Positions 1 through 64,000 of a stretch of 64,000 nt of DNA are shown piece after piece. The stretch is from an uncultured Acidobacteriota bacterium (lineage in GTDB: Bacteria; Acidobacteriota; Vicinamibacteria; Vicinamibacterales; CAVVIG01). The stretch is from contig CAWBMO010000007.1 of NCBI GenBank assembly GCA_963789965.1, positions 69,661-133,660 on the forward strand, given 5' to 3'. Under the pieces are notes generated by a model that did not search any database, had not been told where the DNA came from, and saw only the letters and a list, made by a program, of their open reading frames with translations. The position numbers and the translations under genes are program-made. Position 1 is the stretch's first letter. Every line of letters begins with the position of its first letter.

Positions 1-2
1 CG

Positions 3-1990: not shown

Positions 1991-2047
1991 AATTGCAGAT
2001 TGCAGATTGCGGATTGCAGATTGCTGATTCATTGCGGATGGCAGATT
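1991..2047. repeat. Tandem heptamer array (ATTGCAG)n, family C, single arm
   Basis: About 8 direct units between the pilP-like stop and the pilQ ATG. The 22 nt TCGTGAAATTGCAGATTGCAGA are identical to the start of the element at 41713. Confidence 0.85.
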
Positions 2048-4587
2048 TGAGGACACTTGTGACGAGACGGTTGAGAGCAGTCGGGATTCTCCTGGCCTTC
2101 GGCATTCTTGCCAGCGGGTGCGCGGCCGGCAGCGCGTTCCGGCAGGGCGAGAAGGCATCGCAGGCCGGGAATCTCGACGAAGCCGTCGCGGCGTACCGCA
2201 GGGCGGTGCAGGCCGATCCGAGGAACCCGAACTACGCGATCGCGCTGCAGCGCACGATGGTCGCCGCGTCCCGGGCGCATCTCGAGCGCGCAAAGGAGTT
2301 CGAAGATCGCGATCAGCTGGAAGCGGCCCTCGGCGAGTACCGCCTGGCGTCGGAGTACGACCCGAGCAACCGGACCGTCATCGTGAAGGTAGCCAGCCTC
2401 GAGCAGACGATCCGCGCTCGTATCGAGGCGTCCCGGCCGCGGCCCGCCATTGAGGCACTCCGTGCGCAGGCGCGCGCGGCATCGGCCGAACCGGCGCTCA
2501 ATCCTGCGTCGCGCGACCCGTTGAGAGTCCAGTTCCCCAATGCCCAGGTCAGAGAGGTGCTCGGCTTCATCGCCAATCTGACGGGCATCAACATCACCTA
2601 CGACCGTGATGTGGTCGACGGCCGCGCGATTTCCGTCCAACTCGACGGGGTCACGCTCGAGCAGGCGCTCAATCAGATCATGACGATTGGGCAGCTGTCG
2701 TACAAAGTCGTGAATCCGCAATCCATCTTCGTGTTTCCGGACACGACCCCCAAGCACCAGATCTACGACGAGCAGGTCATCCGCACGTTCTATATCTCGA
2801 ACGCCGATCCCACCGAGCTTGCACAAACCGTGAGCCAGCTCATTCGAATTGCCGGCATCGCCGTTCAGCCGATGATTGCGCCCAACAAGATCGCCAACAC
2901 GATCACCGTGCGCTCCACCGGCCCCATGATGCAGATCGTCGAGAAGATCATCGAGCAGAACGACAAGCCGCGCGCCGAGATCATCGTCGACGTCGAGATC
3001 CTCGAGGTCGATCGCACCCGGACGAAAAGCTACGGCCTGAATCTGAGCGAGTACGCCGTCGGGACGATCTTTTCGCCCGTAGTGGCACCAGGCGGGGTCA
3101 CGGTCTCGACGCAGCAGGGCACAGTGACCGGCCCCGGAACGGGAACGGGAACGACAACGACCGCATCCGCGGGACAAGGGACAGCGCCGAGCGCCGTCAC
3201 CTCGCCGCCGCCGTTCAATCTGAACACGATCACGCGAGGCGTGAGCACCGCCGATTTCTATCTCGCCGTGCCGACCGCGATCGTGCGGTTTCTCGAGGCC
3301 GACAACCACACCAAAGTCATCGCGAAGCCGCAGCTGCGGGGCGCAGAGGGCTCCAAGCTGACGCTGAAGCTCGGTCAGAAGATTCCCGTGGTCTCGACCA
3401 GTTATACGCCGATTGCCACCGGCGGTGCGGGCGTCAACCCGCTGAGCTCGTACACATATCAGGACGTCGGCGTCAACATCGACATGACGCCGCGCGTCTC
3501 GCTCGACGGCGAGATTATCCTCGACTTGGTCCTGGACAACAGCGCGCTCGGCCCGGACAAATCTGTTGCGGGCGTGACGGTACCCACATTCGTGCAGCGC
3601 ACGGTCACGACACGGCTGCGCCTGCGCGATGGCGAGTCCAACCTGCTCGCAGGCCTGATACAGCAGCGAGACTCGAATACCGTCCAGGGATTCCCGGGCG
3701 CGATTCATCTGCCGTTTTTCAAGCAGATCTTCTCGGGCAACGACATCACGAGCGATCAGACCGAGATCATCATGCTGCTGACGCCCCACATCGTCCGCAC
3801 GCAGGAACTGACCGAATCAGACCTGCGGCCGATCTACATCGGCTCGCAGCAGAACCTGGGCCTCGGTGGACCGCCGCCGCTCATCGCCGCGCCGGAACCG
3901 GAACCGACGCCACCGCCGGCACCTGCGCCCACGCCTGGAGCGGCAGCACCCGGGGGGGCTGCGCCGGGTACTCTCACGGGGCCCGGCGGCGTCCAGCTGT
4001 CGGCTCCGCCTGGCTCGACTCCGGTCCCAGGCACCGTTGTGGTCGTCCCGGCGCCAGCCGTCCCGGCGCCGGGTGCGCCCGCCACCAATCCTGCGGCGCC
4101 GTCTCCAGCGCCGCAGGCAACGCCACCTCCAGGGCCGCCCGCGCCGGCAGCCGGAACCTCGACCACATCGCCCGGCCTCGGCCAGGCGCAGATCATCATC
4201 TCTCCGTCTCCCACGATGCGTGTCGGCGGCGGCCCGTACACTGTTCCAATATCAGTGACGAACGCGCTGGGCCTGTCGACGGTCTCGTTGACGCTGGTGT
4301 ACGACCCCACGAAGCTCCGCATCCGGTCCGTGCAGCAGGGCAGCTTCATGCGAACCGGGGGCATCGACGTCGTCTTCACCCAGCAGGTCAACGCGGGACG
4401 GGTCGACATCACGCTCACGCGGTCGGGGGACTCGACAGGCGCATCGGGCACCGGGCTTCTCGCCGCCGTGCTCTTTGACGCGATTGCGCCGGGCACGACC
4501 GCGCTCACGACGAGCGGCGCGGCAACCGGCCCTGGAGGCGCTGCCATGGGGCTGCAGTTCCAGCCGGTCACGGTCATCGTGCAGTAA
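2038..4587 (+). CDS. pilQ: Secretin (PilQ/GspD family) with TPR-like N-terminus and C-terminal Pro/Ala linker plus cohesin-like domain
   Basis: ORF 1987..4587. The first 17 codons translate the heptamer repeat, so ATG 2038 is preferred. Signal/lipobox-like LASGC, TPR-like helices, secretin N-domains and core (RAEIIVDVEILEV, TEIIMLLTPHIV). Then a ~100-aa P/A-rich linker and a beta domain (ISPSPT..VPISV..LTLVYDPTKL). Confidence 0.85.
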   Translation: MADLRTLVTRRLRAVGILLAFGILASGCAAGSAFRQGEKASQAGNLDEAVAAYRRAVQADPRNPNYAIALQRTMVAASRAHLERAKEFEDRDQLEAALGEYRLASEYDPSNRTVIVKVASLEQTIRARIEASRPRPAIEALRAQARAASAEPALNPASRDPLRVQFPNAQVREVLGFIANLTGINITYDRDVVDGRAISVQLDGVTLEQALNQIMTIGQLSYKVVNPQSIFVFPDTTPKHQIYDEQVIRTFYISNADPTELAQTVSQLIRIAGIAVQPMIAPNKIANTITVRSTGPMMQIVEKIIEQNDKPRAEIIVDVEILEVDRTRTKSYGLNLSEYAVGTIFSPVVAPGGVTVSTQQGTVTGPGTGTGTTTTASAGQGTAPSAVTSPPPFNLNTITRGVSTADFYLAVPTAIVRFLEADNHTKVIAKPQLRGAEGSKLTLKLGQKIPVVSTSYTPIATGGAGVNPLSSYTYQDVGVNIDMTPRVSLDGEIILDLVLDNSALGPDKSVAGVTVPTFVQRTVTTRLRLRDGESNLLAGLIQQRDSNTVQGFPGAIHLPFFKQIFSGNDITSDQTEIIMLLTPHIVRTQELTESDLRPIYIGSQQNLGLGGPPPLIAAPEPEPTPPPAPAPTPGAAAPGGAAPGTLTGPGGVQLSAPPGSTPVPGTVVVVPAPAVPAPGAPATNPAAPSPAPQATPPPGPPAPAAGTSTTSPGLGQAQIIISPSPTMRVGGGPYTVPISVTNALGLSTVSLTLVYDPTKLRIRSVQQGSFMRTGGIDVVFTQQVNAGRVDITLTRSGDSTGASGTGLLAAVLFDAIAPGTTALTTSGAATGPGGAAMGLQFQPVTVIVQ

Positions 4588-4597
4588 CGGTGCCTCG

Positions 4598-5209
4598 ATG
4601 GTCCCTGGTCCCTGGTCCTTCGTGCTTGGTCCGTCCCTGGTCCTTAGTCGTCCCTGGGCCTTGGCGCCTGGTGCACACCACGGACCGAGGACCAAGGACG
4701 GACTAAGGACTAAGAACGGACCAAGGACCAAGGCCCAAGGACTAAGGACCGACGACGGATACACGTTCATAGAGCTGCTCGTCGTCGCCACGATCATTCT
4801 GATTCTGGCATCGGCCATCATGCCGCTCGTGCGCGTCACGTCGACCCGCCAGCGCGAGGCCGAGCTGCGGCGCGATCTGCGGGAAATCCGCACGGCCATC
4901 GACAAGTTCAAGGACGCCGCCGACACCATGCAGATCAGCCCGCTCGACCTGAAGCCGGACGGCATGGGCTATCCGCCCGATCTCGAGACGCTTGTCGAAG
5001 GGGTGACCGCGGCGAACGATCAGGCCGCGCGCAAGCTCAAGTTTCTGCGGCGTGTCCCGGTGGATCCCATGACGCACGACACCGAGTGGGGGATGCGTTC
5101 GTACCAGGACGATCCGGACGCCACACGGTGGGGCGGACAGAATGTGTTCGACGTCTACACGAAGTTCGAAGGAACGGCGCTGGACGGGACCAAATACAAA
5201 GACTGGTGA
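4598..5209 (+). CDS. GspG-like pseudopilin / type IV pilin-like protein
   Basis: Prepilin motif G|YTFIELLVV with Glu at +5. GspG-like body (RRVPVDPMT..W). Start is uncertain: the in-frame candidates are ATG 4598 or TTG 4664, both inside hairpin repeat A1. Confidence 0.75.
   Translation: MVPGPWSFVLGPSLVLSRPWALAPGAHHGPRTKDGLRTKNGPRTKAQGLRTDDGYTFIELLVVATIILILASAIMPLVRVTSTRQREAELRRDLREIRTAIDKFKDAADTMQISPLDLKPDGMGYPPDLETLVEGVTAANDQAARKLKFLRRVPVDPMTHDTEWGMRSYQDDPDATRWGGQNVFDVYTKFEGTALDGTKYKDW
4600..4750. repeat. Tandem-heptamer palindrome, family A (GGTCCYT)n ... (ARGGACC)n
   Basis: ~75-nt left arm of GGTCCCT/GGTCCTT units, apex near 4675, right arm of AAGGACC/TAAGGAC units. Lies between pilQ and the first pseudopilin. 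Confidence 0.9.
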
Positions 5210-5388
5210 ATTGGGTAATTGGGTAATCTGGTAATTGGGTAATTGATTGGTGAATTGAATGCGGTGGATTGGCTGATGGTGGATAGGCAGACTGGATTGA
5301 AACGGCGACTGCGCACGACTCGTGCCCTTCGTGTCTTCAATCGTCTCTTCAATTATCCGATTACCCGATTACCCGATTACCCAATTGA
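5208..5388. repeat. Tandem-octamer palindrome, family B (GGGTAATT)n ... (CGATTACC)n with ~88-nt loop
   Basis: Left arm 5208-5262, right arm 5351-5387. The candidate start codons of the second pseudopilin lie in the loop. Confidence 0.85.
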
Positions 5389-5776
5389 CCGTTCCCCGTC
5401 CGGATTCACGATCATCGAGCTCCTCGTTGTCCTCGCCCTCATCTCCATCCTGGCTACCATGGGGATGGCGCAGTACCGGCAGGGCGTCGTGCACGCGCGC
5501 GAGGCGGTGTTGAAGACGGATTTGTTCGATCTGCGGGACGCGATCGATCAGTACTACGCCGACAAAGGGCAGTATCCCGGGACGCTCGACTCGCTCGTCA
5601 CTGACGGATATATCCGGAAGGTCCCCGTCGACCCCTTCACGAACGCCGCCGACACGTGGCAGACGGTTCCGTCAGACCCCGATCCCAATAATCCCACCGC
5701 CACTCCTGGAATCTACGACGTGAAGAGCGGGTCCGATGGGACCGCCATCGACGGCAGCAAATACGCGGAGTGGTAA
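5276..5776 (+). CDS. GspG-like pseudopilin (T2SS major pseudopilin family)
   Basis: G|FTIIELLVVLALISILA with Glu+5. DLRDAIDQYYADKGQYPGTLDSLV..YIRKVPVDPF is a classic GspG pattern. Start is uncertain (ATG 5276, GTG 5279 or TTG 5297, all in the loop of repeat B1). Confidence 0.8.
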   Translation: MVDRQTGLKRRLRTTRALRVFNRLFNYPITRLPDYPIDRSPSGFTIIELLVVLALISILATMGMAQYRQGVVHAREAVLKTDLFDLRDAIDQYYADKGQYPGTLDSLVTDGYIRKVPVDPFTNAADTWQTVPSDPDPNNPTATPGIYDVKSGSDGTAIDGSKYAEW

Positions 5777-5844
5777 CGGAGCGCAGCCACGCGCGCGAAT
5801 CGAATCAGGCCCACGAACCAAAGTGTCTCGAGGGGCTGCACGAT

Positions 5845-7137
5845 CTACGGAATGATTGTCGTCGTCGACGTCCCGGTTTGGCCCGATACGGTAGTTGTCA
5901 CCGTCACTCTCACAACTTTGGCACCGGATCCTGTCGCATACGGGTGCGACACCTGGTTTCCCGAAGTGTTCTGATCTGGTGTGCCGTCGCCGAATTCCCA
6001 ACGGTAATTAGTCACCTGAACACTGGATGGTGAAACAGTCGCTGTGAATGTGACCGTTGTAAAGCCGGGCGATGGAGTGTTAACGGCCTGAGTCGATGTG
6101 AGATTCACGGAGACCGCAGTCGACCCGCCAACGACGACGACCGTTGAAGCTGATGCCTGGCCGCCGTTCGTGTCGATCACGCTGACAGTCGCCGTCTTGG
6201 GACCGGGGCTATCGTAGACATGCTGCACTGCGAGGCCGGTGCCGGACGCGCTCCCAAGAGAAGCGCCGGTGCCGTCTCCAAACGTAACTGCGGTATTTTG
6301 GATAGCCGCAGAGCTGCCCGTGCCAGGTGTCGCGGTAATAGTAAATGTCGTCGCTATTCCCACCTGCGGATTGGCGGAAGCCGTAATCGCGGCGACGGGC
6401 AGTGGCTCCACGGTGACTGTAACCGTCGCAGACGGCGGGGGAACCGCCGTGGTCGTCGTGCCCGATATGGTCGAGGACGCGACGCCCGCGGTCGCCGTCA
6501 CTTTCGCTGTTTTGCTGGTCGTGAGTTTTGTGCTCGCCCTGCCGCTGGCATCTGTGTTGACCACTGACGGATTGACCGAACCGCTGTCGGTGCTGAACGT
6601 CACGGGCACGTCCGCGATGAGATTTCCGCCCGCGTCGCTGGCCGTCGCTGTGATTGTCGACTGACCTCCAGTTGAGATCGTGGCTGGAAGCGCTGTCACC
6701 GCGATGCCGGCGACACCCGCCGCCCCGATCGCTATCTTGATCGCGCCCAACGCGCCTGTCGTCACGCCACCAGAAAGGGCAGTAACCGTGGCCGTCCCGG
6801 ACAGGGTCCCGGCCTTGAACGTCACCATCACACGCCCACCAGGATCGGTTTCGGCCTCGACCGGCTCAATCGTGCCGAGCGACGTCGTAAAAGTCACGAG
6901 CGTCCCGCGCTGCGGCGGCGTCCCGGCGGGTTCGATCACTTGGGCGATGATATTCGTCGTCCCGCTCAAAGGAAGCGTCGACAGCAGCGTGGTCAGGGTG
7001 ATGCTCGACCCCGCCGGCGCGAGCAGCGCCACGCGCTGACAGCCTATCGTCGTGACGGCGAGCATGCCGAGTGCGGCCAGCAGGAGCGGGCGACGGAAAC
7101 CTGTTATCATGAATGCGCTAACCATCTTAAATCGCAT
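5845..7137 (-). CDS. Lipoprotein with tandem Ig-like (Big) domains and C-terminal PKD domains
   Basis: 430 aa. Signal plus lipobox (LAVTTIGC). Repeated ~90-aa T/S/G-rich beta domains. PKD signatures (VQHVYDSPGPKTATV, YRWEFGDGT..VSHPY). Confidence 0.7.
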   Translation of the reverse strand: MRFKMVSAFMITGFRRPLLLAALGMLAVTTIGCQRVALLAPAGSSITLTTLLSTLPLSGTTNIIAQVIEPAGTPPQRGTLVTFTTSLGTIEPVEAETDPGGRVMVTFKAGTLSGTATVTALSGGVTTGALGAIKIAIGAAGVAGIAVTALPATISTGGQSTITATASDAGGNLIADVPVTFSTDSGSVNPSVVNTDASGRASTKLTTSKTAKVTATAGVASSTISGTTTTAVPPPSATVTVTVEPLPVAAITASANPQVGIATTFTITATPGTGSSAAIQNTAVTFGDGTGASLGSASGTGLAVQHVYDSPGPKTATVSVIDTNGGQASASTVVVVGGSTAVSVNLTSTQAVNTPSPGFTTVTFTATVSPSSVQVTNYRWEFGDGTPDQNTSGNQVSHPYATGSGAKVVRVTVTTTVSGQTGTSTTTIIP

Positions 7138-8017
7138 GAAGTTACAAGGTCAATCAACAGCGGACCACGAGAGTCTGCGCACCGGTGTGACGTCGTGCGC
7201 AGACGTGGCCACGGCGAAAAACGCGAGCGATCGTGGTTACGCCATGGCGGTGCTTCTGGTGGCGATGAGCATCATGGCGATCATGATGACGGTCGCCATG
7301 CCGGTCTGGAAGCAGATGGCGCAGCGGGAAAAGGAGCAGGAGCTGATCTTTCGGGGTCAGCAATACGCACGCGCCATCGGGCTCTTCGAGCGCAAGTACG
7401 CCAACACACCGCCGCCCACACTCGATGTTTTGACCCAGGAGCGCTTCCTCCGAAAGAAGTACAAGGACCCCATTACAAACCAGGACTTTGTTCCGATTCC
7501 CGCCGCGGCGGCAGCCGTCAGCACGCCAGGCTCGACGCAGGCCGGGCGCGGCGGCGCTGCCGGCCCGGTCGCCGACCCGCGCGGTGCTCAGCCCGCCTTC
7601 CCTAGTATCGGCAGCACGGGAATCACCGGCGCATCCGGCGGCATCGTGGGTGTCACGAGCGCGAGCAAAGCCGCGTCGATTCGCATCTATAACGGTGCCT
7701 CGCACTACAACGAGTGGCGATTCGTGTACGCGCCGCCCGCCGCTACGCCAGGCGCCGGCGGCGGCCCCGGCGCCGCCGTTCCGGGTGGCCGGGGCGGGCC
7801 GGCAGGGCGAGGCGGCCCGCCAGGGCCCGGTGCACAGCCAGGAAGGGGTGGCCCGCCAGGGCCCGGCGGCCCGTTTGGGCCCGCCGGTCCGTTTGGGCCA
7901 GGAGGTCCGCTCGGACCGAACGGCCGCGGCCCAGGGGGCCCAGGGCCTGGAGGACCTACCCGAGGAGGATCGGGGGGCGGTCCAATCCCGCCTGTCGCGC
8001 CCGGCCGCGGTCGTTAG
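7136..8017 (+). CDS. Pseudopilin-like protein with Gly/Pro-rich C-terminal tail
   Basis: Prepilin-like G|YAMAVLLVAMSIMAIMM (no Glu+5, like minor pseudopilins). The C-terminal ~90 aa is GGP/GPG-rich. The start ATG 7136 overlaps the divergent gene's start codon. An internal GTG start is also possible. Confidence 0.55.
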   Translation: MKLQGQSTADHESLRTGVTSCADVATAKNASDRGYAMAVLLVAMSIMAIMMTVAMPVWKQMAQREKEQELIFRGQQYARAIGLFERKYANTPPPTLDVLTQERFLRKKYKDPITNQDFVPIPAAAAAVSTPGSTQAGRGGAAGPVADPRGAQPAFPSIGSTGITGASGGIVGVTSASKAASIRIYNGASHYNEWRFVYAPPAATPGAGGGPGAAVPGGRGGPAGRGGPPGPGAQPGRGGPPGPGGPFGPAGPFGPGGPLGPNGRGPGGPGPGGPTRGGSGGGPIPPVAPGRGR

Positions 8018-8030
8018 GGGTTAAGACGTT

Positions 8031-8126
8031 GAATCTGGTCATCTGGTTATCTGGTCATCTAGTCAATGATTTGGGTCACTCCTGAAATCAATGACCAGAT
8101 AACCAGATGACTAGATGACCAAATTC
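8031..8126. repeat. Tandem-octamer palindrome, family D (CTGGTCAT)n ... (ATGACCAG)n
   Basis: GAATCTGGTCATCTGGTTATCTGGTCATCTAGTCAATGATTT pairs with AAATCAATGACCAGATAACCAGATGACTAGATGACCAAATTC. Lies between convergent genes. The stop of the minus-strand gene is in the right foot. Confidence 0.9.
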
Positions 8127-9204
8127 ATAGTGCACCCAGCGCATCGTGGAAGGCGCGCCGGACCGCCCGCATGTCCTCCGGCGATCCGCCGCCGCAGGCC
8201 CGATTCGTCAGGAGCACGAAATACCGATCCCGGCCCGGGTCGACCCACAAGGACGTTCCCGTAAACCCCACGTGGCCGACGGCTTTCGGCGACATCTGCG
8301 TCCCACACGAGGAGGTTGGCAACATCGTGTCCCACCCGAGCGCGCGTGAGCTCCCGGGGACGGAGCTCTTCGTCATGAAGCTGGCGACGAGTTCGGGAGA
8401 GAACGGCGCGGGGCCGCTGTCGTCGCGTGCGGCACGCAGGAGGAGACGTGCGAAGGCGCCGACGGCGGGTACCGTTCCGAACAATCCCGCATGACCGGCG
8501 CTGCCGCCGAGTGCGGCCGCGTAGTTGTCGTGAACTTCGCCGGCGAGCAATCGGCCCCGGCGCGGATCGTCTTCGAGCGGCTGCGTCGGGGCGGCGCCGG
8601 CTCTCAAGTTCCCCCTTAGATCAAACGTCAGGGGATCCGCCGTCAGGCCGATTTGTGCCGCGATTCGATCAAACAACTCCGGCAGCGACGCTCCCCCGCG
8701 ATCGACCGCAAGAAATCCCAACAGAATGAAACCGAGATCGCTGTAGATCGACCGCGTCCGCGGCTCGTATTCAAGCGCCGTTCGGCAGATGTCGTGCTCG
8801 AACTCACGGCGGCTCCGTGGCGGGGCGTCGACGAGCCGCGCCGGGAGCCCCGAGGTGTGTTCCAGCAGGTCGCGAATCGTCACGCGCGCGCGATCGGCGC
8901 CGCGCCATTCGTTGAAGAATTCAGAGACGGAATCGTCGAGCCTCACTCGCATCGTGCGCACGAGCTCCATCAGAATGCTCGTCGTGACGATGGCTTTCGT
9001 GAGGGAAGCGAGGTCGAAGGGCGTGTCGAGCCGAGCCGGCAAAGAGCCGGCGTCGAAAGTCAGCGTGCCAAGTGCGTCACTCCAGAGCACACCTGCGGAC
9101 GAGCCGACCTCGAAACTCGCTGCAGGAAAGATCCGCCCGGCAATCGCTTGCTCGAGGACAAGCCGCGCGGCAACCGTCACGCCAGATGCGCGAGGGGCGT
9201 TCAC
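8125..9204 (-). CDS. Serine hydrolase (beta-lactamase / PBP4-like family)
   Basis: 359 aa. Active-site SxxK motif (ASLTK) near the N-terminus, class C beta-lactamase-like layout. 4-nt overlap with murQ. Confidence 0.8.
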   Translation of the reverse strand: MNAPRASGVTVAARLVLEQAIAGRIFPAASFEVGSSAGVLWSDALGTLTFDAGSLPARLDTPFDLASLTKAIVTTSILMELVRTMRVRLDDSVSEFFNEWRGADRARVTIRDLLEHTSGLPARLVDAPPRSRREFEHDICRTALEYEPRTRSIYSDLGFILLGFLAVDRGGASLPELFDRIAAQIGLTADPLTFDLRGNLRAGAAPTQPLEDDPRRGRLLAGEVHDNYAAALGGSAGHAGLFGTVPAVGAFARLLLRAARDDSGPAPFSPELVASFMTKSSVPGSSRALGWDTMLPTSSCGTQMSPKAVGHVGFTGTSLWVDPGRDRYFVLLTNRACGGGSPEDMRAVRRAFHDALGAL

Positions 9205-10145
9205 CCAGCGCCCAGCAGCTCTTTCAGCCGCGCCTCGGCGTCCTCCCCGATGGCGTCGCGGACAAAGTTATGCGCGCGGCGGAGCCGCGTGAGAGCCTGC
9301 GCGTGGGACAAACCGGACTTCTGCATGACGATCGCCGCTTTGACGTTCCACTGCGCGCGCTTGAGCAGCTTGTCGGCTTCGTCGTAGTCCAGTCCAGTGA
9401 CGATGACGATGATACGCCGCGCGCGATCGCGCAGCTTCTCGGATCCTGTCTGGACGTCGACCATCAGATTGCCATAGGTCTTGCCCGTGCGGACCATCGC
9501 CCCGGTCGTCAGCATGTTCAACACGAGCTTGGTCGCCGTCCCGGCTTTGAGGCGTGTCGACCCCGCAATCACTTCAGGGCCGACCGCCGGCGCAATCGTC
9601 AGGTCGACGAAGGTCTGCAGCTCGGTGCGTGGATCGCACGTGACGAATATGATTTTGGACCCGGCGCGTCTCGCCCTCGTCAGCGCGCCGAGCACGAACT
9701 GCGTCATCCCGCTCGCCGACACGCCCACCACCACATCGTGCTTTACCGGCCGCAGCCGGTTGATGGCGCGCGCCCCTTCTTCGTAGTGGTCCTCCACGCC
9801 TTCCTTCGGCTTGATGATGGCGCCCTTGCCGCCCGCCATGATCGCCTGAACGAGCTCGGGTTTCGTCCCGAAGGTCGGCTGCATCTCCGCTGACTCGAGG
9901 ACGCCCAGCCGGCCGCTGGTCCCGGCTCCGACAAAAATAATCCGGCCGCCCTTCTTGAGTGACTGCGTGATGATATCAATGCCGACCACGATCCGATCCT
10001 TCTCACGCTGGACCGCCGCGAGCATCTTGCGATCCTCGGTCAACATCTCTTCGACGATGTCGGCGGATGACTGCTTGTCGATGGCCAGCGTGGCCGGATT
10101 GATAGCTTCAGTCGGAAGGGATTGCCACTTCGAACGTACAGGCAT
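9201..10145 (-). CDS. murQ: N-acetylmuramic acid 6-phosphate etherase
   Basis: 314 aa. SIS-domain etherase pattern (LPTE..NP.T..ID, GGRIIFVGAGTSGRLGVLESAEMQPTFG). Confidence 0.9.
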   Translation of the reverse strand: MPVRSKWQSLPTEAINPATLAIDKQSSADIVEEMLTEDRKMLAAVQREKDRIVVGIDIITQSLKKGGRIIFVGAGTSGRLGVLESAEMQPTFGTKPELVQAIMAGGKGAIIKPKEGVEDHYEEGARAINRLRPVKHDVVVGVSASGMTQFVLGALTRARRAGSKIIFVTCDPRTELQTFVDLTIAPAVGPEVIAGSTRLKAGTATKLVLNMLTTGAMVRTGKTYGNLMVDVQTGSEKLRDRARRIIVIVTGLDYDEADKLLKRAQWNVKAAIVMQKSGLSHAQALTRLRRAHNFVRDAIGEDAEARLKELLGAG

Positions 10146-10196
10146 GCTGAGGGGACCTCACGAGCAAGTCGCGAATCTTACTACAGTCTATAGTTT

Positions 10197-10283
10197 TTGG
10201 TCGTTGGTCATTAGTCGTTGGTCGTTGGTTGGTCACCAGCCCTTGACGAACGTGTAACGACTAATGACTAATGACCAACGACC
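10197..10283. repeat. Tandem-heptamer palindrome, family E (TTGGTCGT/TTGGTCAT)n ... (ACGACYAA)n
   Basis: Lies in the murQ/xerD divergent spacer. The right arm ends one nt before the xerD GTG. Confidence 0.85.
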
Positions 10284-11159
10284 GTGATTGACGCCTTTCT
10301 GGACCACCTGCGCGTCGAGCGGCGGCTGGCCGCGCACACCCTCGAAAGTTACGGGCGGGACCTGGCTGCGCTCGCAGAATACGCAGCGGGGCTCGGCGTG
10401 GCGCCAGACGCGCTCGACCGGCGGGCGCTCGAACGATTCGTCAGGCGGCAGATCAGCCGGGGCCTCTCACCGCGCTCCGTGGCGCGATCGGTCGCCGCGA
10501 TTCGTGGATATTACCGGTTCCTCGTCCTCGACCGCCGTCTGCCGAGCAGTCCCGCAGACGACCTGCAGCCGCCGCGCGCGTGGCCGGCGCTGCCAAAATT
10601 CCTGTCGCTCGAGGAGGTCGATGCGCTTATTGCACAGCCGGATGTCGCGACACCACTCGGCCTCCGCGATCGCGCCATGATCGAGCTGCTGTACGCGACG
10701 GGGATGCGGGTGTCCGAGCTCGTCGGCGTCCGGACCGCGGATCTCCATCTTCGCGAGCGCTATCTGACCTGCGTCGGCAAGGGCAACAAAGAGCGGCTGG
10801 TTCCGACCGGCGATCAGGCGATCACGTGGATCGAGCGCTACCAGAAGACCGCGCGCCCGAGGCTCCTCAAAGGGCGCGCGTCAACGCGGCTGTTCTTGAA
10901 CGTCCGGGGCAAGCCCATGAGCCGCGTCGGCTTCTGGAAGCTTCTGAAACGGTACGGCCACCGCGCCAACCTGCCGCGCTCGCTCAGCCCGCATGTGGTC
11001 CGACATTCGTTTGCGACGCATCTGCTCGAGCGCGGCGCCGATCTGCGGGCGATCCAGATGATGCTAGGCCACACGGACCTGTCGACGACGCAAATCTACA
11101 CGCACGTGCTCGAAGCGCGTCTGCGTACCGTCTACGATCGATTTCATCCGCGGCCGTGA
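10284..11159 (+). CDS. xerD: Site-specific tyrosine recombinase XerD (XerC/XerD family)
   Basis: 291 aa. N-terminal [23 protein letters not shown]. Catalytic ARG..HxxR..Y region ([37 protein letters not shown]). XerC versus XerD cannot be resolved by eye. Confidence 0.85.
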
Positions 11160-11195
11160 TTCTGTTAGACTTAGCCGTTTTTACCTTTTATTTTG

Positions 11196-11255
11196 GGTCC
11201 GCCTGAAGGCGGGCACTACGACAGCACGAAAGTCGTGTCCGGCTTTAGCCGGACC
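11196..11255. repeat. REP-like double hairpin (K type)
   Basis: GGTCCGCCTGAAGGCGGGCACTAC and GTCGTGTCCGGCTTTAGCCGGACC modules. The same two modules recur at 19200-19255, and a degenerate copy lies near 29360-29400. Confidence 0.8.
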
Positions 11256-11271
11256 TTTGAAGGAGAGCGGC

Positions 11272-12423
<1,152 letters not shown>

Positions 12424-12444
12424 TGACGTGACTCATGAAGTGAG

Positions 12445-14175: not shown

Positions 14176-14227
14176 GCTCCGGGCTCCGGGCTCCAGGCCT
14201 GAAGCCAAGAGTCCGAAGCCTGAAGCC
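14175..14227. repeat. Tandem-heptamer palindrome, family H (GGCTCCG)3 ... (GAAGCCN)3
   Basis: Fills the entire spacer between the convergent PHP-hydrolase and lptFG stops. About 24-bp stem with transitions and G.U pairs. Confidence 0.75.
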
Positions 14228-14228
14228 G

Positions 14229-16592: not shown

Positions 16593-16639
16593 ATGGGCTG
16601 GAGGGGCGTCCAGCCCGTCCTGCCGAGAGAGTACCACCG

Positions 16640-18883: not shown

Positions 18884-18947
18884 GGAACGGGGAGCGGCAC
18901 GCCTGCAATAACCCTCCACAAAGGGGTATCTCTTAGCGATATCTCTA

Positions 18948-48615: not shown

Positions 48616-48791
48616 AGTCCTTGGTCCTTTGGTCTTGGTCCTTCGTCCGTCCTTGGTCTTTGGTCCTTCGTCCGTCCTTGATCATTCGTCCGTCCCTGGT
48701 CATTCGTGCTCGGTCCGTGCCAAGCGCCAAGGCCCAAGGACAACCAAGGACTAAGGACGGACCAAGAACCAAGGACCAAGAACCAAGGACC
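48616..48791. repeat. Tandem-heptamer palindrome, family A (largest copy)
   Basis: ~100-nt left arm with internal GGTCCTTCGTCCGTCCTTG duplications, ~70-nt right arm (CCAAGGAC/TAAGGAC units). Fills the guaA-dnaE spacer. Confidence 0.9.
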
Positions 48792-48795
48792 ATCG

Positions 48796-57457: not shown

Positions 57458-57467
57458 AATGACACCT

Positions 57468-57543
57468 GAATCGGGTAATTGGATAATCGGGTAATTGAGT
57501 AATTGCGATTACCCAATTACCCAATTACCCGATTACCCAATGC
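57468..57543. repeat. Tandem-octamer palindrome, family B
   Basis: The left arm GAATCGGGTAATTGGATAATCGGGTAATTGAGTAAT is identical to 31354-31389. The right arm contains the psd stop. Lies inside the psd-pssA operon. Confidence 0.9.
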
Positions 57544-58185
57544 CCCTGTCTGTGAGTGTAGCACCGCGATGACGGTTTCGCCGCCGCGCACCATGTCGCC
57601 GACTGCAACAGTAATCGTGGCATCAAGCGGCACGAACACATCCATCCGCGAGCCGAATTTCATGATGCCGAAACGGTCACCGGCGCGCACGTCTGTACCG
57701 GTTGCCACGCGACAGACAACGCGCCGGGCCAGCATCCCGACGATTTGACGGGCCACGATCGTCTGACCGCCGTGATCGATCCAGATCTCACTCCGCTCAT
57801 TGGTCGTACCTGCATCGTGCCGGTACGCCGGCAGAAACCGGCCGGGCTTGAACGTCACCCGCGTGACACGACCGGAAGCCGGAATGCGATTGACGTGCAC
57901 GTCCATGGGCGACAGAAAGATACTGACCTGCTGCCACGATCCGGGCGGGGACGATTCTGCGGGGGCCAGGCCGGCCACTAGCACGCGGCCATCCGCCGGC
58001 GAGAGCACCGCCTCCTCATCTGACGGCGACAGTCGATCCGGATCGCGGAAGAAAAAGAGGAAGAAGCCCGCGAGAAGAAGGAACGGCAACGCCCCCAGCC
58101 AGGCGCCAGCGACAACCCACGCGAGCGCGAGGGCAAGCGCGCCGCCGATGAACGGCAACGCGGCGGGATCGATGTGAATGGCCAT
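57517..58185 (-). CDS. psd: Phosphatidylserine decarboxylase-related proenzyme
   Basis: 222 aa. N-terminal TM helices. FLSPMDVHVNR and the self-cleavage region FGSRMD. The stop codon lies in repeat B4. Confidence 0.8.
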   Translation of the reverse strand: MAIHIDPAALPFIGGALALALAWVVAGAWLGALPFLLLAGFFLFFFRDPDRLSPSDEEAVLSPADGRVLVAGLAPAESSPPGSWQQVSIFLSPMDVHVNRIPASGRVTRVTFKPGRFLPAYRHDAGTTNERSEIWIDHGGQTIVARQIVGMLARRVVCRVATGTDVRAGDRFGIMKFGSRMDVFVPLDATITVAVGDMVRGGETVIAVLHSQTGALGNRVIG

Positions 58186-58198: not shown

Positions 58199-58274
58199 AA
58201 GAGGTTCGAGAGGTTTCGAGAGATTCGAAAGGTTCGAGAGGTTCTAGAACCCTTAGAACCTCTCGAACCTCTCG
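58199..58274. repeat. Tandem-nonamer palindrome, family G (GAGAGGTTC)n ... (GAACCTCTC)n
   Basis: Centred on GGTTCTAGAACC (58241-58252). Lies between the DUF465 gene and psd. Confidence 0.85.
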
Positions 58275-58281
58275 CCGCCCG

Positions 58282-59054: not shown

Positions 59055-59061
59055 TAACCAG

Positions 59062-59150
59062 TCAACACAAAGGACACCAAGGACACAAAGGTAAAACACC
59101 TTTGAGTATTTCCTTAGTCTCTTTTGTGTCCATGGTGTCCATTGTGTTGA
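59062..59150. repeat. F-type palindrome (TCAACACAAAGGACACCAAGGACACAAAGG / rc)
   Basis: ~30-bp stem. Lies between tsaB and rimI. The tsaB stop is in the loop/right arm. Confidence 0.85.
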
Positions 59151-59878
59151 GCGGTCTTCCGTTCCCGTTCGACTTCGGCGTCAGGCCTCCGCACGTACAA
59201 GGGTTGCACCGCCGCTGGATCGATCGTGTCCCCACGCTCGGCGCGCGCCAGCGCGATGCGGCCGATGGCACCGGCAAGCAGGGGCGTCTGTGGCAGCCGC
59301 GTCCAGCCGGGTGACGCGCCCCTGGAAATGGTATCGATGGTGTCCGCATGCAGTATCGCGCCGTCACCGACGAACAGCACGCGGGCGTCGCGGATGTGGC
59401 TCCTCCACCGCGTCAGCGTCGCAGCCGGCTTGCCAACGCTCGGTCCTTCCACTTCGACCAAACGCTCCGGAGAAAACGCCGCGGCATCAGTGATTTTGTA
59501 CAGCGCCGTGAACACATCCTGGCGACGGGCATCGATCCACGCGGCGACGAACGTTCCGGGCGGGCCGCCACTGCTCTGCGCCAGCGCCTCGAGGGCCGAA
59601 ACCGCCACGACTCGCCGTCCTGTGGTGAGCGCGAGCCCCTGGATCGTCGCGATACCGATCCGCAGGCCGGTGAACGATCCGGGGCCGGACGCGACCGCGA
59701 ACACATCGATCCCGCTCACGGATAATCCGTGCGCTCCGGCCAGCCGAACGAGCTCGTCTGGCAGTCGCTCGGCGTGAGAGCGCGCGGCATCGCCGCGGCG
59801 CTCCTCGACAACGTGATGTTGGTCGACGAGCGCCACACTCCCGTCGCGCGTCGTCGTATCAAGCGCCAGCACATGCAT
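59114..59878 (-). CDS. tsaB: tRNA t6A biosynthesis protein TsaB
   Basis: 254 aa. LALDTTT..SVAL and GPGSFTGLRIG motifs. The C-terminal ~12 codons and the stop lie in repeat F3. Confidence 0.85.
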   Translation of the reverse strand: MHVLALDTTTRDGSVALVDQHHVVEERRGDAARSHAERLPDELVRLAGAHGLSVSGIDVFAVASGPGSFTGLRIGIATIQGLALTTGRRVVAVSALEALAQSSGGPPGTFVAAWIDARRQDVFTALYKITDAAAFSPERLVEVEGPSVGKPAATLTRWRSHIRDARVLFVGDGAILHADTIDTISRGASPGWTRLPQTPLLAGAIGRIALARAERGDTIDPAAVQPLYVRRPDAEVERERKTAQHNGHHGHKRD

Positions 59879-62604: not shown

Positions 62605-64000
62605 GGCGCCGCGTGTTTTTCACCACAAAGGACACTAAGGACACAAAGGCCAGAACCGGTTCGTTCCTCTGTGTCCTTTGTGTCCTTTGTGTTCCTGCCT
62701 GCCTTGAACGGCCCACTCTTAATCCGAACGTCCTCGTCGTCGCGATGCCGAGCGGACCCAATAGTCTCGACCCTCGGGTCGGACTCGACGATGCGTCGCA
62801 GAAGATCCATCAGTTGATCTTCGACAATCTGTTCGAGCTCGACGACAAGATGCGTGTGAGGCCGAAGCTCGCCGAAACACTCGACCACCCGACGCCCACG
62901 ACCTACGTCGTCACACTCAAGCACGGGGTTCGTTTTCAAGACGGGCACGAGCTGACATCGGCTGATGTCGTCTATACGTTCCGGAGCTTCTTGGATCCCG
63001 ATTTCGTGTCCGGACGTAAGGGCGGGTACCGCGAGCTTCATTCCGTTGACACGATCGACCGGTACACCGTGGTCTTTACTCTCGACAGACCCTTCACGTC
63101 TTTCCCGATTAATCTCGTCATGCCCATCGTGCCCGACGGCGCTGGTGCCACGCTCTCGAGACGTCCCATGGGCACGGGACCGTACCGGTTCGTTCGCTAT
63201 GCGGTCGACGATCGCATCGAACTTGAGCCTTTCAACGAGTACTTCGGCGGCCGCCCGCGCAATGACGGGCTGATCATAAAGGTCGTGCCCGACGACATCA
63301 TGCGCGGGCTCGAGTTGCGGAAGGGGACGACGGACCTGGTCATCAACGACCTGACGCCGGACATCGTCTTCCAGCTCGAAAAGAGCGACCGGCTGCAGCT
63401 GGTCGAAGCGCCGGGTGTCGATTACCAGTATCTCGGACTGAACCTGCAAGACCCTGTACTAAAGGATGTCAGAGTCCGCCAGGCCCTCGCGTACGCAATC
63501 GACACGCACGCGATCATCGAATATCTGCGACGCGGGCTCGCGACGCCGGCGACAGGGCTTATGCCCCGTCAGTCCTGGGCGATTGCTCCCGATGTACGCG
63601 CGTACCCGTTCGATCCGGATCGTGCAAGAGCGCTTCTCGACGAGGCAGGCTACCGCGATCCGGATGGCGACGGTCCAGCGCCCCGCCTGCTCCTGAGCTT
63701 GAAAATCTCCAGCGCTCAGGAATTCAACCGGCTGCAGGCGTCAGTCATACAGCAACACCTGCGTGCCGTCGGCATCGATCTCGACGTGCGCACCTACGAG
63801 TTCGCGACGCTGTTTTCGGACGTACTGAAGGGGAACTTTCAGATATACAGCCTGCAGTGGACGGCCGGCTCGCTCGCCGATCCCGATATGCTCCGCCGCG
63901 TCTTTCATTCGAAACAGGTGCCGCCCGAAGGGTTCAACCGCGGTCACTTCAGCGATCCACGAGTGGATGCCCTGCTCGACGAAGCCGCCTCCTCGACCGA
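62601..64000 (+). CDS. ABC transporter substrate-binding protein, family 5 (peptide/nickel type), 3' end outside window
   Basis: The frame is open from ATG 62601 (overlaps the mutS stop, ATGA) to the window edge, so it is absent from the ORF track. LDPRVGLDDASQ..IFDNLFELD, VTLKHGVRFQDGHELTSADVVYTF, GTGPYRF. Codons 8-34 are repeat F4. Confidence 0.75.
   Translation, partial: MRRRVFFTTKDTKDTKARTGSFLCVLCVLCVPACLERPTLNPNVLVVAMPSGPNSLDPRVGLDDASQKIHQLIFDNLFELDDKMRVRPKLAETLDHPTPTTYVVTLKHGVRFQDGHELTSADVVYTFRSFLDPDFVSGRKGGYRELHSVDTIDRYTVVFTLDRPFTSFPINLVMPIVPDGAGATLSRRPMGTGPYRFVRYAVDDRIELEPFNEYFGGRPRNDGLIIKVVPDDIMRGLELRKGTTDLVINDLTPDIVFQLEKSDRLQLVEAPGVDYQYLGLNLQDPVLKDVRVRQALAYAIDTHAIIEYLRRGLATPATGLMPRQSWAIAPDVRAYPFDPDRARALLDEAGYRDPDGDGPAPRLLLSLKISSAQEFNRLQASVIQQHLRAVGIDLDVRTYEFATLFSDVLKGNFQIYSLQWTAGSLADPDMLRRVFHSKQVPPEGFNRGHFSDPRVDALLDEAASST
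62621..62695. repeat. F-type palindrome inside the 5' end of the substrate-binding protein gene
   Basis: CACCACAAAGGACACTAAGGACACAAAGG - 17-nt loop - CTCTGTGTCCTTTGTGTCCTTTGTGTTCC. Confidence 0.85.

Follow-up and report, generated by a model that had tools for sequence, protein, structure and literature searches.

Tandem-unit hairpins at gene junctions of a Vicinamibacterales genome, possible gene-less members of a cassette class resembling 23S rRNA IVSs

In a 64,000-nucleotide stretch of DNA (the window) from a soil bacterium, an Acidobacteriota genome of the order Vicinamibacterales, gaps between genes are filled by short tandem units that face reverse-complement copies of themselves, which raises the question of whether such hairpins were built to punctuate the host's transcripts or arrived as elements of another kind. 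Two-armed elements were detected with TRF and by aligning every array with its reverse-complemented flanks, a procedure that found 13 elements in the real window versus 1 in total over 20 dinucleotide-preserving shuffles. The full set of 17 comprises 13 clear two-armed palindromes, two weaker ones, a one-armed array and a gene-enclosing pair of arms (Table 1). For nine of the clear palindromes the detected bounds fall slightly within those of the table: 4599-4750, 5209-5386, 8033-8121, 19308-19434, 21765-21880, 31355-31434, 57469-57541, 58200-58274 and 59065-59147. Palindromes were confirmed at or beside each coordinate first given, but the supposed simple hairpin at 43516 proved to be two arms about 400 nt apart with a gene remnant between them. 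The original estimate of about 20 loci in almost every intergenic gap was too high, since among gaps of 40 nt or longer 17 of 30 are occupied. The non-coding fraction (~9% of the window) holds all 17, placed exactly at gene junctions in the contexts first described (convergent, co-directional and one divergent gap), and four of the five convergent gaps of at least 40 nt are occupied. The right arm of E02, and the loop and right arm of E03, are probably translated as prepilin leaders, so these two elements are not purely intergenic.

Table 1. Tandem-unit elements of the window and the sites they occupy
Element	Position	Strand	Structure	Site	Basis
E01	1992-2047	.	one-armed array, ATTGCAG x ~8	between stop of ORF 1421-1990 and secretin lipoprotein start (about 2045)	TRF, sequence
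E02	4595-4755	.	palindrome, GGTCCYT + AAGGACC units, 64-nt arms	fills secretin/pseudopilin gene gap	
E03	5204-5390	.	palindrome, GGGTAATT + AATTACCC units, loop ~76 nt	between two pseudopilin genes	
E04	8030-8127	.	palindrome, (A)TCTGGTC units, 43-nt arms, 86% complementary	between convergent genes	
E05	10197-10283	.	palindrome, TTGGTCG/TTGGTCA units	between divergent murQ and xerC; ends at xerC start codon	
E06	14175-14228	.	short, weaker two-armed palindrome, GGCTCCG + CGRAGCC units	between convergent genes	
E07	19296-19443	.	palindrome, GTCCTTG + GGACCAW units	within 1.26-kb non-coding stretch	
E08	21762-21884	.	palindrome, ATCGGGTAAT units	right after BFN-domain gene stop, upstream of conserved TACAAT box preceding parA	
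E09	31353-31436	.	palindrome, GGGTAATY units; both arms mirror a higher-order period of 16 nt	between convergent ssb and cupin genes	
E10	39364-39470	.	gene-less hairpin, weaker two-armed, GxxExxY arm type (CTACCACRGAGG...)	in 164-nt spacer from lptC/A stop to lptB start	
E11	41720-41793	.	palindrome, ATTGCAG units	between recJ and lptC/A	
E12 left arm	43538-43570	+	CAACACAAAGGACACGAAGGAGCACACGGAG, three CRCRRAG units		
E12 cargo	43612-43953	+	GxxExxY / PDDEXK_3 gene remnant		Pfam PF13366, three-frame translation, tblastn
E12 right arm	about 43972-44006	+	degraded approximate reverse complement of left arm		
E13	48617-48792	.	large palindrome, GTCCTTG + ACCAAGG units	fills guaA/dnaE gap	
E14	57461-57550	.	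palindrome, GGGTAATY units	between psd and CDP-alcohol phosphatidyltransferase gene; overlaps psd stop codon	
E15	58200-58277	.	palindrome, GAGAGGTTC units (9 nt)	upstream of psd	
E16	59057-59155	.	gene-less hairpin, GxxExxY arm type (CAACACAAAGGACACCAAGGACACAAAGG)	between TsaD-family gene (Pfam PF00814) and GNAT acetyltransferase gene	
E17	62624-62692	.	gene-less hairpin, GxxExxY arm type (CACCACAAAGGACACTAAGGACACAAAGG)	between mutS and solute-binding-protein gene	

At least seven unit families of 7-9 nt, most of them lacking G-tracts, coexist in the window, and all follow a single shared design, as had been proposed. Some units recur at unlinked loci (ATTGCAG twice, GGGTAATT four times, GGTCCTT three times and AAGGACAC four times). 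A conventional REP-like hairpin, GTCCGGCTTTAGCCGGAC, is also present at 11237, 19205 and 29362. On either strand the two-armed elements, with stems of 25-65 bp, fold far better than shuffles (z -4.3 to -12.6; E02 reaches dG -104/-115 kcal/mol, z -10/-13). The one-armed E01 lacks a complementary arm, and its fold is no better than that of shuffles.

The gene remnant within E12 offers a clue to where the design comes from. The ORF at 43648-43992 matches Pfam PF13366 (E 7.5e-13), and the remnant lies antisense to recJ and accA on either side of it. It shifts frame three times (1 -> 2 -> 3 -> 1) and a stop codon stands just upstream, which makes it a pseudogene unless these are assembly errors; dnaE likewise has an in-frame TGA, and assembly errors are possible for the E12 frameshifts. 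Local alignment of the two arms recovered only about 11 matching positions. Flanking inverted arms with a score of at least 30 were found at 52 of 75 metagenomic GxxExxY loci, and at just 1 of 217 control positions taken from those loci. Most of these arms are built of ~9-nt CRCRRAG units, with at least two such motifs upstream in 55 of the 75 loci at a modal spacing of 9 nt, against a background of 0.19 per 245 nt, and in many called homologues the arm units are translated too, as N-terminal extensions reading 'TTEDTDTNGGHG' or 'NTKDTKDTK'. Inverted arms also stand beside the gene in four finished isolate replicons: the CRCRRAG unit is matched in Bacteroides finegoldii and Gemmatirosa, and looser variants (CGCGAAG, CACAGAGA) occur in Sphingomonas, where the gene order is fabD-[gene]-fabG, and in Bernardetia. 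The D...ExK motif is invariant in the GxxExxY alignment, and an AlphaFold2 model (pLDDT 93) shows a fold of the nuclease type that weakly matches Cas4 and lambda exonuclease.

A second gene family is framed in the same way. Genes for the PF05635 Avd-like '23S rRNA IVS protein' have heptamer arms on both sides at two independent sites, one between ORFs read as tldD and pmbA (locus L053) and one upstream of radC, which in L083/L084 and L165-L167 keeps the GTTSACA unit in varying copy number. The same unit is shared by a solo element elsewhere in L083, which also holds a one-armed array at 3916-3954. Because the PF05635 gene keeps its position upstream of radC across several genomes, at least some cassettes are stable residents. 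Both families have thousands of homologues in the libraries searched, most of them on very short contigs.

The recurrence of one arm design around GxxExxY and Avd-like genes points to selfish IVS-like cassettes over host-designed punctuation. A complete cassette would consist of two inverted tandem-unit arms around one small gene, either a GxxExxY PD-(D/E)XK nuclease (TIGR04256 / PF13366) with ~9-nt CRCRRAG arms or an Avd-like four-helix-bundle protein (TIGR02436 / PF05635) with heptamer arms, and there is, in our estimate, an even chance that the window hairpins are lineage-amplified, gene-less ('solo') members of this widespread class. The elements may spread or be copied as selfish DNA, their arrays growing and shrinking by replication slippage, and arm complementarity might be kept by the need for a hairpin or by template switching within it. 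By analogy with rRNA IVSs, the 25-65 bp stem of the transcript could serve as an RNase III substrate, and cutting there would make an insertion between operon genes tolerable. At the DNA level the palindromes may extrude as cruciforms. The CRCRRAG arm type accounts for only 4 of the 17 window elements (cassette E12 and the solo E10, E16 and E17). The other families (GGGTAATT, GGTCCTT, TTGGTCR, ATTGCAG, GAGAGGTTC and GGCTCCG) share the architecture and are lineage-restricted; no cargo-bearing copy of any of these was found, and the cassette model therefore reaches them by analogy. A common origin of the elements is likely, in keeping with the common generating mechanism first suggested.

Comparison with related genomes reveals turnover. 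At the orthologous locus L081 (amino-acid identity 80% for RecJ and 85% for AccA) E10 is absent and the lptC/A stop and lptB start abut (TGAATG), E11 is absent with a 1-nt gap at recJ/lptC/A, and, conversely, a solo element stands where the window genes overlap (TAATG). The guaA/dnaE spacer holds E13 units in the window versus a palindrome of AAGGATCT units in L081. Read in the recJ sense orientation, the upstream arm of E11 supplies the final 10 codons of recJ and its stop; the RecJ C-terminus it encodes is similar to the ancestral sequence (IADFR vs LADLR), a likeness as compatible with growth in situ from local sequence as with insertion. Across L001, L002 and L005-L009 the window's sites show the same unit in another copy number, a different unit or no element: the E05 site has an identical unit in different copy number in L002; at the E06 site L002 carries an AGTCAGA palindrome, L005 has plain hairpins and L001 lacks a spacer; and the E08 site has the same unit in L002 and no element in L005, L006, L007 and L009. 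The anticipated copy-number variation between orthologous spacers is thus accompanied by unit replacement and by presence/absence differences, and it is from the latter, unpolarized by an outgroup, that mobility would be read. No target-site duplication or defined terminus was seen at the elements. L083 and L084 are 99.7% identical; one array is longer by exactly one 8-nt unit in one of the two, and a single spacer hairpin accounts for 29 of the 45 substitutions and 6 of the 7 indels between them.

Among described systems, the cyanobacterial STRR arrays have TTGGTCA as their STRR2 unit, which is present as a unit variant in E05. STRR and TAACTGA arrays share with the window intergenic tandem heptamers of variable copy number, but they come from other taxa and are almost always direct, whereas the elements here are as a rule paired as palindromes; in Beggiatoaceae just one inverted case is found in 170 TAACTGA sets (PMC4679880). 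The design was originally thought to be undescribed, yet inverted pairs of GGGAATC heptamer arrays are known from Xanthomonas (Rehm et al. 2015), with 70-75 pairs per genome, 2-26 copies, the capacity to form stem-loops or cruciforms, an 89-93% intergenic location near the upstream ORF, and length and sequence that vary among related species, mostly without a change of repeat type (PMC4692102). These arrays resemble the window's in their inverted 7-nt tandem units, GGGAATC itself recalling GGGTAAT(T/C), and differ in using one G-rich unit, studied for its G-quadruplex potential, and in having no reported associated gene, whereas the design described here is seen around GxxExxY genes (one arm type) and PF05635 genes (heptamer arms). 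The 23S rRNA IVSs of Coxiella and Leptospira, which are regarded as selfish and sporadic in distribution, share a small ORF of the same family (S23p / PF05635) flanked by terminal inverted repeats; these pair into a long stem, which in Coxiella measures 28 bp and is cut by RNase III (PMC4990558). They lie inside rRNA helices 9, 25 or 45, whereas the window elements lie between protein-coding genes and mostly lack an ORF, and tandem units in IVS stems are not noted in the parts of PMC4990558 drawn on here.

Could the hairpins nevertheless serve the host, being selected to end, process or protect transcripts, with the small genes as later passengers? Elements directly after stop codons and ahead of conserved promoter-like boxes (E08), the occupancy of convergent gaps, the very strong folding, and ordinary hairpins or a classical terminator at the orthologous sites S3 and S4 in L005 and L006 speak for this reading. 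Terminator-like sites in 1-20000 are also not enriched (10 found versus a shuffle expectation of 10.9), so that some other 3'-end device may be needed. The elements themselves, however, are probably not intrinsic terminators, as no T-run follows the stem of any of them on either strand. Arm differences, described as mostly transitions, are 60 transition-type versus 52 transversion-type (54% transitions), and transitions would not help both transcripts to fold, because a G.U pair on one strand is an A.C mismatch on the other. No bias of G.U versus A.C toward the transcribed strand was found in the window (20:15, p = 0.5) or in 52 cargo cassettes (91:82, p = 0.54), and the sense strand is the better folder in only 6 of 9 co-directional cases, which lends no support to selection at the RNA level. 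Stems of 25-65 bp far exceed the needs of 3'-end protection, elements also occur in a divergent gap, in 5' leaders and in leader-peptide coding sequence, and close relatives lack them at the same junctions; we consider host-serving punctuation unlikely.

It is also improbable, in our judgement, that the elements are immobile by-products of mutation, in which slippage amplifies local 7-9 nt motifs, template switching (quasipalindrome correction) mirrors the array, and small genes survive best in, or preferentially insert into, such hairpins. The one-unit indel between near-identical strains, copy-number variation at orthologous sites, one-armed arrays (E01; L083), the recJ-like arm of E11 and the slippage credited for heptamer over-representation (PMC4692102) would all fit, but identical units stand at unlinked loci and the 164-nt spacer of E10 separates codons that abut in L081. 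Moreover, CRCRRAG arms are common to GxxExxY cassettes of Bacteroidota, Gemmatimonadota and Acidobacteriota, and Alphaproteobacteria carry looser variants, a spread for which independent local slippage cannot account. A REP/BIME-type system, in which a RAYT (IS200/IS605-like Y1) transposase, its gene lying elsewhere in the genome, multiplies and maintains the hairpins, would explain the high density of intergenic palindromes, some of them composite, beside the conventional REP-like hairpin. Such REPtrons likewise combine a gene-bearing copy between inverted hairpin arms with many gene-less copies, and have proposed roles in mRNA stability and DNA topology. We think this very unlikely, since the tandem-unit elements have neither a conserved GTAG or CGTC tag nor a fixed 20-40 bp sequence, their arms are arrays whose length changes by whole units, no Y1 transposase was found among the ~40 window ORFs scanned with Pfam, and the genes inside arms encode not a RAYT but a PD-(D/E)XK nuclease or an Avd-like protein. 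Low-complexity spacers do trouble assemblers, as the short contigs of most homologues and the end of the L001 contig within a spacer that carries repeats in relatives indicate; an assembly or sequencing artefact is nonetheless scarcely credible, given the same architecture in finished isolate replicons and long-read metagenome-assembled genomes (L002), its identity in two independent assemblies from different samples (L083, L084), and orthologous elements kept between species.

The new lead of this analysis is E12, at 43538-44006, where arms of the GxxExxY type enclose a decayed GxxExxY gene. The occurrence of the same design around two families of small genes elsewhere suggests that the hairpins may be gene-less relatives of selfish cassettes and not purpose-built punctuation.

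TRF detected short-period arrays at every coordinate named in the original prediction, and an inverted-repeat search joined them as pairs of arms, 28-64 nt long and 72-93% complementary. With a detector requiring TRF arrays of period 6-11, at least 2.5 copies and a reverse complement aligning within 220 nt, 13 clear two-armed elements were recovered in the window, against one hit in total over 20 dinucleotide-preserving shuffles, which supports the view that tandem-unit palindromes are non-random. Reading the sequence added four more: two weaker two-armed elements (14175-14228 and 39364-39470), a one-armed array (1992-2047, E01) and an element with arms ~400 nt apart (43538-44006, E12). Units are 7-9 nt long in the 13 clear and 2 weaker two-armed elements. 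All 17 elements (E01-E17) lie in gaps and none within gene bodies, most of them beginning 0-20 nt after a stop codon or overlapping it. The architecture and its strongly intergenic placement had been recognized correctly, but the figure of about 20 loci was too high, as was the statement that almost every gap is occupied, since an element is present in 17/30 gaps of at least 40 nt in the window gene map. E02 and E03 probably include some coding sequence: in-frame starts for the two pseudopilin genes are found only within or upstream of these elements, so that translation of the right arms would yield leader peptides. The loop together with the right arm of E02 (4597-4756) and of E03 (5243-5389) seemingly supplies these leaders; the pseudopilin orthologues in the comparison locus L005 have ordinary leaders of 12-15 residues.

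The surroundings, with a G+C content of 64%, are an ordinary chromosomal region, in which Pfam recognizes a secretin, pseudopilins, murQ, xerC, metK, lptF/G, parAB, ssb, lptB, lptC/A, recJ, accA, dnaE, guaA, mutS and psd; the gene map combines a codon-usage model with Pfam hits and orthologue alignments, and an rpoN-matching ORF was identified by tblastn against the related locus L081. MetK (11257-12423) shares 90-91% protein identity with the Vicinamibacterales/Acidobacteriota metagenome-assembled genomes L001 and L002, and the host is placed in Acidobacteriota, order Vicinamibacterales. Look-ups of three window proteins by exact sequence returned no record. The window has no rRNA, tRNA or tmRNA genes, and Rfam gave no hit at the gathering threshold over its whole length; at an E-value threshold, 18850-20200 returned only spurious plant miRNA-precursor models, which match any long hairpin. 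The dnaE gene (minus strand, 48611-45021) forms one continuous frame against its L081 orthologue (75% identity), interrupted once by an in-frame TGA that separates the HHH domain from the OB domain, and a frameshifted dnaE was rejected for this reason; the TGA may be a sequencing error, a recent mutation or the sign of a genuinely split gene. A G+C-rich repeat of 18-nt period (GGCGGCCCGCCAGGGCCC) within an ORF lacking a Pfam hit (7052-8017) probably encodes a Gly/Pro-rich repeat.

The ORF enclosed by E12 (43648-43992) matches the C-terminal part only of Pfam PF13366 (PDDEXK_3, GxxExxY family). Three-frame translation yields a full-length homologue with three frame changes and a stop codon just upstream, and the gene has either decayed or been assembled with indel errors. 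The arms are of the 'AAGGACAC' type that also forms the hairpins at 39364 (E10), 59057 (E16) and 62624 (E17). A protein search found 4548 GxxExxY homologues at E <= 1e-5, the best 120 of which lie mostly on contigs of 0.5-4 kb. In their alignment, the D...ExK nuclease motif is invariant, and many gene calls are extended N-terminally by 'TTEDTDTNGGHG' or 'NTKDTKDTK', exactly what CACGGAGGACACGGA and ACACAAAGGACAC repeats yield when translated. A metagenome scan with this alignment yielded 80 loci, 75 of which were kept as having at least 120 nt on both sides; inverted arms (local score at least 30) lie beside the gene in 52/75, as against 1/217 pseudo-gene positions within the same loci. The latter control replaced a cross-locus control of arm complementarity, which was overly conservative given the similarity among arms from different loci. 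Two or more CRCRRAG motifs occur upstream of the gene in 55/75 loci (modal spacing 9 nt; background 0.19 per 245 nt), and gene-less two-armed elements elsewhere in these loci are of the same arm type in 20/28 cases. Inverted arms also accompany the gene in the finished replicons of Bacteroides finegoldii (after radA), Gemmatirosa kalamazoonensis, Sphingomonas parapaucimobilis (fabD-[gene]-fabG) and Bernardetia sp., the CRCRRAG unit being matched in the former two and the arms of the latter two being looser variants. One arm type is a general flank of GxxExxY genes across phyla.

As a definition of this arm type, we propose a 5' arm with two or more CRCRRAG units at a spacing of 8-10 nt and a 3' arm made up of CTYYGYG units and in many cases beginning with ACCRC. 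The left arm of E12 and the whole of E17 have all of these features (the right arm of E12 is degraded), E10 has one strict motif per arm and E16 has degenerate 3'-arm units, and the other 13 window elements are of different make. The gene is co-directional with its neighbors in 85/107 cases of the metagenome sample, the neighbor strands being taken from a crude longest-ORF call, and this count led to rejection of the idea that cargo is always antisense to host genes, as it is in the Vicinamibacterales examples. The predicted GxxExxY structure (pLDDT 93) is a minimal PD-(D/E)XK fold, for which Foldseek returned weak matches only, to generic folds of this type (Cas4, lambda exonuclease, splicing endonucleases); no PDB sequence was hit by the GxxExxY profile. 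In the literature covered, which was not exhaustive, we found neither a functional description of GxxExxY, PDDEXK_3, TIGR04256 or the arm sequences nor a paper linking such arms to GxxExxY or PF05635 genes.

Two independent sites have inverted arms of tandem heptamers around genes of PF05635/TIGR02436, the Avd-like four-helix-bundle family that bears the name '23S rRNA intervening sequence protein'. One is in L053, where the gene lies between two large ORFs read as tldD and pmbA; the other is upstream of radC, with an arm-flanked gene in L083/L084 and L165-L167, and L168 has a PF05635 gene at this place too. Across L083/L084 and L165-L167, whose proteins are 64-100% identical, the GTTSACA arm unit is conserved and its number differs; the same unit builds a gene-less palindrome of L083 (8881-9008). 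Upstream of the PF05635 gene in L083 (reverse strand, ~2310-2460) and in L166 (upstream of 10001), second GTTSACA and AGCTWTC arrays stand beside a fragment encoding a PF05635-family N-terminus (VQDFRNLTVW...), and together these are the remnant of an older or duplicated cassette. TIGR02436/PF05635 homologues passing the search threshold numbered 2017, and unlike those of GxxExxY their N-terminal extensions revealed no arm units. Searches of the first 84 loci with tblastn and jackhmmer for further genes of either family returned only the cases already seen.

The related genome represented by L081 carries the orthologous lptB-lptC/A-recJ-[GxxExxY]-accA-dnaE-guaA locus, with amino-acid identities of 91% for LptB, 80% for RecJ, 85% for AccA and only 45% for the cargo; the state of each junction is given in the table. 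A comparison of unit numbers at orthologous spacers, which had been suggested from the sequence, gave a positive result: around metK, the window and L002 share a TTGGTCG and a GGGTAATY element, each differing in copy number. At a third site, GGCTCCG units in the window correspond to an AGTCAGA palindrome in L002, plain hairpins in L005 and no spacer in L001, and the element upstream of parA is absent from L005, L006, L007 and L009. In L083 and L084, assemblies from different samples that are 99.7% identical, the elements are identical bar two exceptions: one array differs by exactly one 8-nt unit, and one 137-nt spacer hairpin (L083 19021-19157), which represents either local hypervariability or a conversion-driven replacement, holds 29/45 substitutions and 6/7 indels. 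The hairpins are thus real and intergenic, and related genomes differ through their gain, loss or replacement as well as through whole-unit changes. Elements of this architecture, built from other units, are also present in Terriglobales, Pyrinomonadaceae, Korobacteraceae and one Verrucomicrobiia genome, three of them lying directly after the metK stop; GGGTAATT, GGTCCTT and TTGGTCG arrays are essentially confined to the window and its closest relatives, with scattered two-mismatch matches elsewhere. MITEs combine terminal inverted repeats and target-site duplications with kinship to a transposase-encoding IS element. Here, junctions at which L081 or other relatives lack the element show no evident target-site duplication, and no transposase was found, the gene-bearing copies encoding a nuclease or an Avd-like protein.

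Features of the window and their counterparts in related genomes
Feature	Window position	In the window	In relatives
lptC/A - lptB	39364-39470 (E10)	164-nt spacer holding E10	L081: genes abut (TGAATG)
recJ - lptC/A	41720-41793 (E11)	E11	L081: 1-nt gap
recJ - accA	43538-44006 (E12)	cassette, gene apparently decayed	L081: cassette, gene intact
E12 left arm	43538-43570	CAACACAAAGGACACGAAGGAGCACACGGAG	
E12 right arm	~43972-44006	degraded, approximate reverse complement of left arm	
dnaE - accA		TAATG overlap	L081: 134-nt spacer with CACGAAG solo hairpin
guaA - dnaE		palindrome, GGTCCTT units	L081: palindrome, AAGGATCT units
dnaE in-frame TGA	45873-45875	minus strand	
18-nt-period repeat	7793-7909	GGCGGCCCGCCAGGGCCC	
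REP-like short hairpin GTCCGGCTTTAGCCGGAC	11237-11254; 19205-19222; 29362-29379	fills three gaps without tandem-unit element	L002 7909-7926; L005 12914-12931
Motif (TT)GAGTCNGATAATGGATGTTATGTTAAC	18930-18975	conserved, non-coding, in spacer after GH57 gene	L001 ~17540-17568; L002 ~17660-17690; L005 ~17555-17580
Hairpin directly downstream of parB	19985-20152	168 nt, 27-bp perfect outer arms, no tandem units	L002, orthologous position: GGGTAATT-type tandem palindrome
Inverted repeat	23740-23861	G+C-rich, 32-nt arms, 84% complementary, 58 nt apart, no tandem units	

The window also holds structures of different kinds. The inverted repeat at 23740-23861 sits in a 203-nt gap between a radical-SAM (UPF0004/TRAM-domain) gene and an SMC-like gene. 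The (TT)GAGTCNGATAATGGATGTTATGTTAAC motif, without an Rfam family, resembles a -35/-10 promoter that would drive an unannotated transcript. The GTCCGGCTTTAGCCGGAC hairpin (chance expectation 0.01), often preceded by GTACGTRG, fits REP better than the tandem-unit elements do: REP/BIME sequences are conserved palindromes of 20-40 bp with a GTAG/CGTC tag and near-identical copies, whereas the window elements vary in unit, length and loop. REP/BIME repeats also flank a RAYT (Y1 transposase) gene, and none was found among the ~40 window ORFs scanned.

It had been thought that no description of this design exists, but there is a precedent in the inverted GGGAATC pairs of Xanthomonas (PMC4692102). 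Rehm et al. described 186 GGGAATC heptamer arrays in Xanthomonas campestris, 70 cases being convergent inverted pairs capable of forming stem-loops, and such arrays are 89-93% intergenic, lie close to the upstream ORF and vary in length between species (PMC4692102). The 13 clear and 2 weaker window elements likewise pair at least two tandem units of ~7 nt with a nearby complementary array, and all 17 share the placement in gaps, mostly near stops. Unlike the G-rich GGGANTN units, which are capable of forming G-quadruplexes, G3 tracts occur in the GGGTAATT family only and not in the six other window families. Cyanobacteria and Beggiatoaceae are known to carry direct heptamer arrays (PMC4679880). 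What is new here is the coexistence of many unit families, the very high density and the phylum. The STRR units of heterocystous cyanobacteria are CCCCAGT, TTGGTCA and CAACAGT; the analogy drawn with them survives insofar as TTGGTCA is present, but only as a variant unit within E05, and the elements, with their acidobacterial host, fall outside the STRR class. The PF05635 family supplies the ORF of the 23S rRNA intervening sequences (IVSs) of Coxiella and, as cited there, Leptospira (PMC4990558). IVSs are cut out by RNase III. Like IVSs, the elements have terminal inverted arms that form a long stem and may enclose a small ORF (in the window a PF13366 remnant; in L053, L083 and L165-L167 a PF05635 gene); unlike them, the window elements lie between protein-coding genes and not inside a 23S rRNA helix.

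The elements had originally been read as RNA-level operon punctuation or DNA cruciforms. The expectation that both strands fold was confirmed, every two-armed element clearly beating its shuffles on either strand (z -4.3 to -12.6) with free energies down to -115 kcal/mol; the exceptions are E01 and a small local fold at 43495-43570. Intrinsic termination finds no support, the longest T-run within 15 nt after any element being 3 on either strand; compared with the short GC-rich stem and U-tract of Rho-independent terminators, the stems are 25-65 bp long, and terminator-like sites in 1-20000 number 10 against 10.9 expected from shuffles. Nor are arm mismatches mostly transitions, as had been stated (60 transition-type versus 52 transversion-type): the share exceeds the one-third expected from random substitution, but it is ordinary transition bias. 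Since each transition leaves a G.U pair on one strand but an A.C mismatch on the opposite one, selection at the RNA level predicts G.U on the transcribed strand. The counts are 20 sense versus 15 antisense in co-directional elements plus E12 (p = 0.5) and 91 versus 82 in 52 cargo cassettes (p = 0.54), and among nine two-armed co-directional elements the sense strand folds better in six, worse in two and equally in one, which is not significant. Folding and G.U counts together thus offer no sequence evidence for pairing kept specifically in RNA, and the symmetry of the elements is that of a DNA palindrome. Punctuation serving the host, to which stable folding of both transcripts is congenial, is in our judgment unlikely.

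We see an even chance that the window elements are gene-less members of IVS-like selfish cassettes. Their arrays would change by slippage, the long stem would be processed by RNase III, making insertion between operon genes tolerable, and the encoded nuclease or Avd-like protein would act on its own hairpin. Against this stand the 13/17 elements whose families have no cargo found, the lack of target-site duplications and the long-term residence of some cassettes. The upstream arm of E11 (41761-41793, recJ sense) encodes the last residues of RecJ, TELTIADFRLQNSD and the stop, with an ADxR core as in TELTLADLRKSDDVRT of L081, and the array either grew out of the recJ coding 3' end or replaced it with a look-alike. 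This resemblance to the ancestral C-terminus also counts against a cassette origin and fits growth in place from local sequence. That the elements are a by-product of slippage and template switching is an unlikely account, and a REP/RAYT system or an artefact deserves little credence. Returning to selfish cassettes, a broader and more tentative proposal is that tandem-unit palindromes are the ends and gene-less derivatives of undescribed, very widespread cassettes with GxxExxY or Avd-like cargo, which settle at operon junctions in several phyla (seen in Acidobacteriota, Bacteroidota, Gemmatimonadota and Alphaproteobacteria) and may be the non-ribosomal counterparts of 23S rRNA IVSs, the protein recognizing its repeat-unit hairpin as RAYT does REP and RNA processing at the hairpin rendering insertion harmless.

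If this broader proposal is true, two large uncharacterized families, the inverted heptamers of Xanthomonas and possibly the cyanobacterial STRRs would share one explanation. GxxExxY (TIGR04256) and 'IVS protein' (TIGR02436) are very large families whose function is not known, and the putative link to them is potentially important: the bracketing of both by tandem-unit inverted arms leads to a testable three-part model in which a structure-specific nuclease or binding protein goes together with its own repeat hairpin and with processing by RNase III. Contigs of 0.5-4 kb hold most of the GxxExxY and PF05635 homologues, the L001 contig stops within a spacer that contains repeats in its relatives, and short-read assemblies appear to break at tandem-unit elements; the model would explain such breaks in soil Acidobacteriota. 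As hypervariable markers that change by whole units, the arrays could serve in strain typing. Gene-less copies of such hairpins can fill more than half of a genome's intergenic gaps, and the model would connect the intervening sequences of rRNA with the far more numerous elements that lie between ordinary genes.
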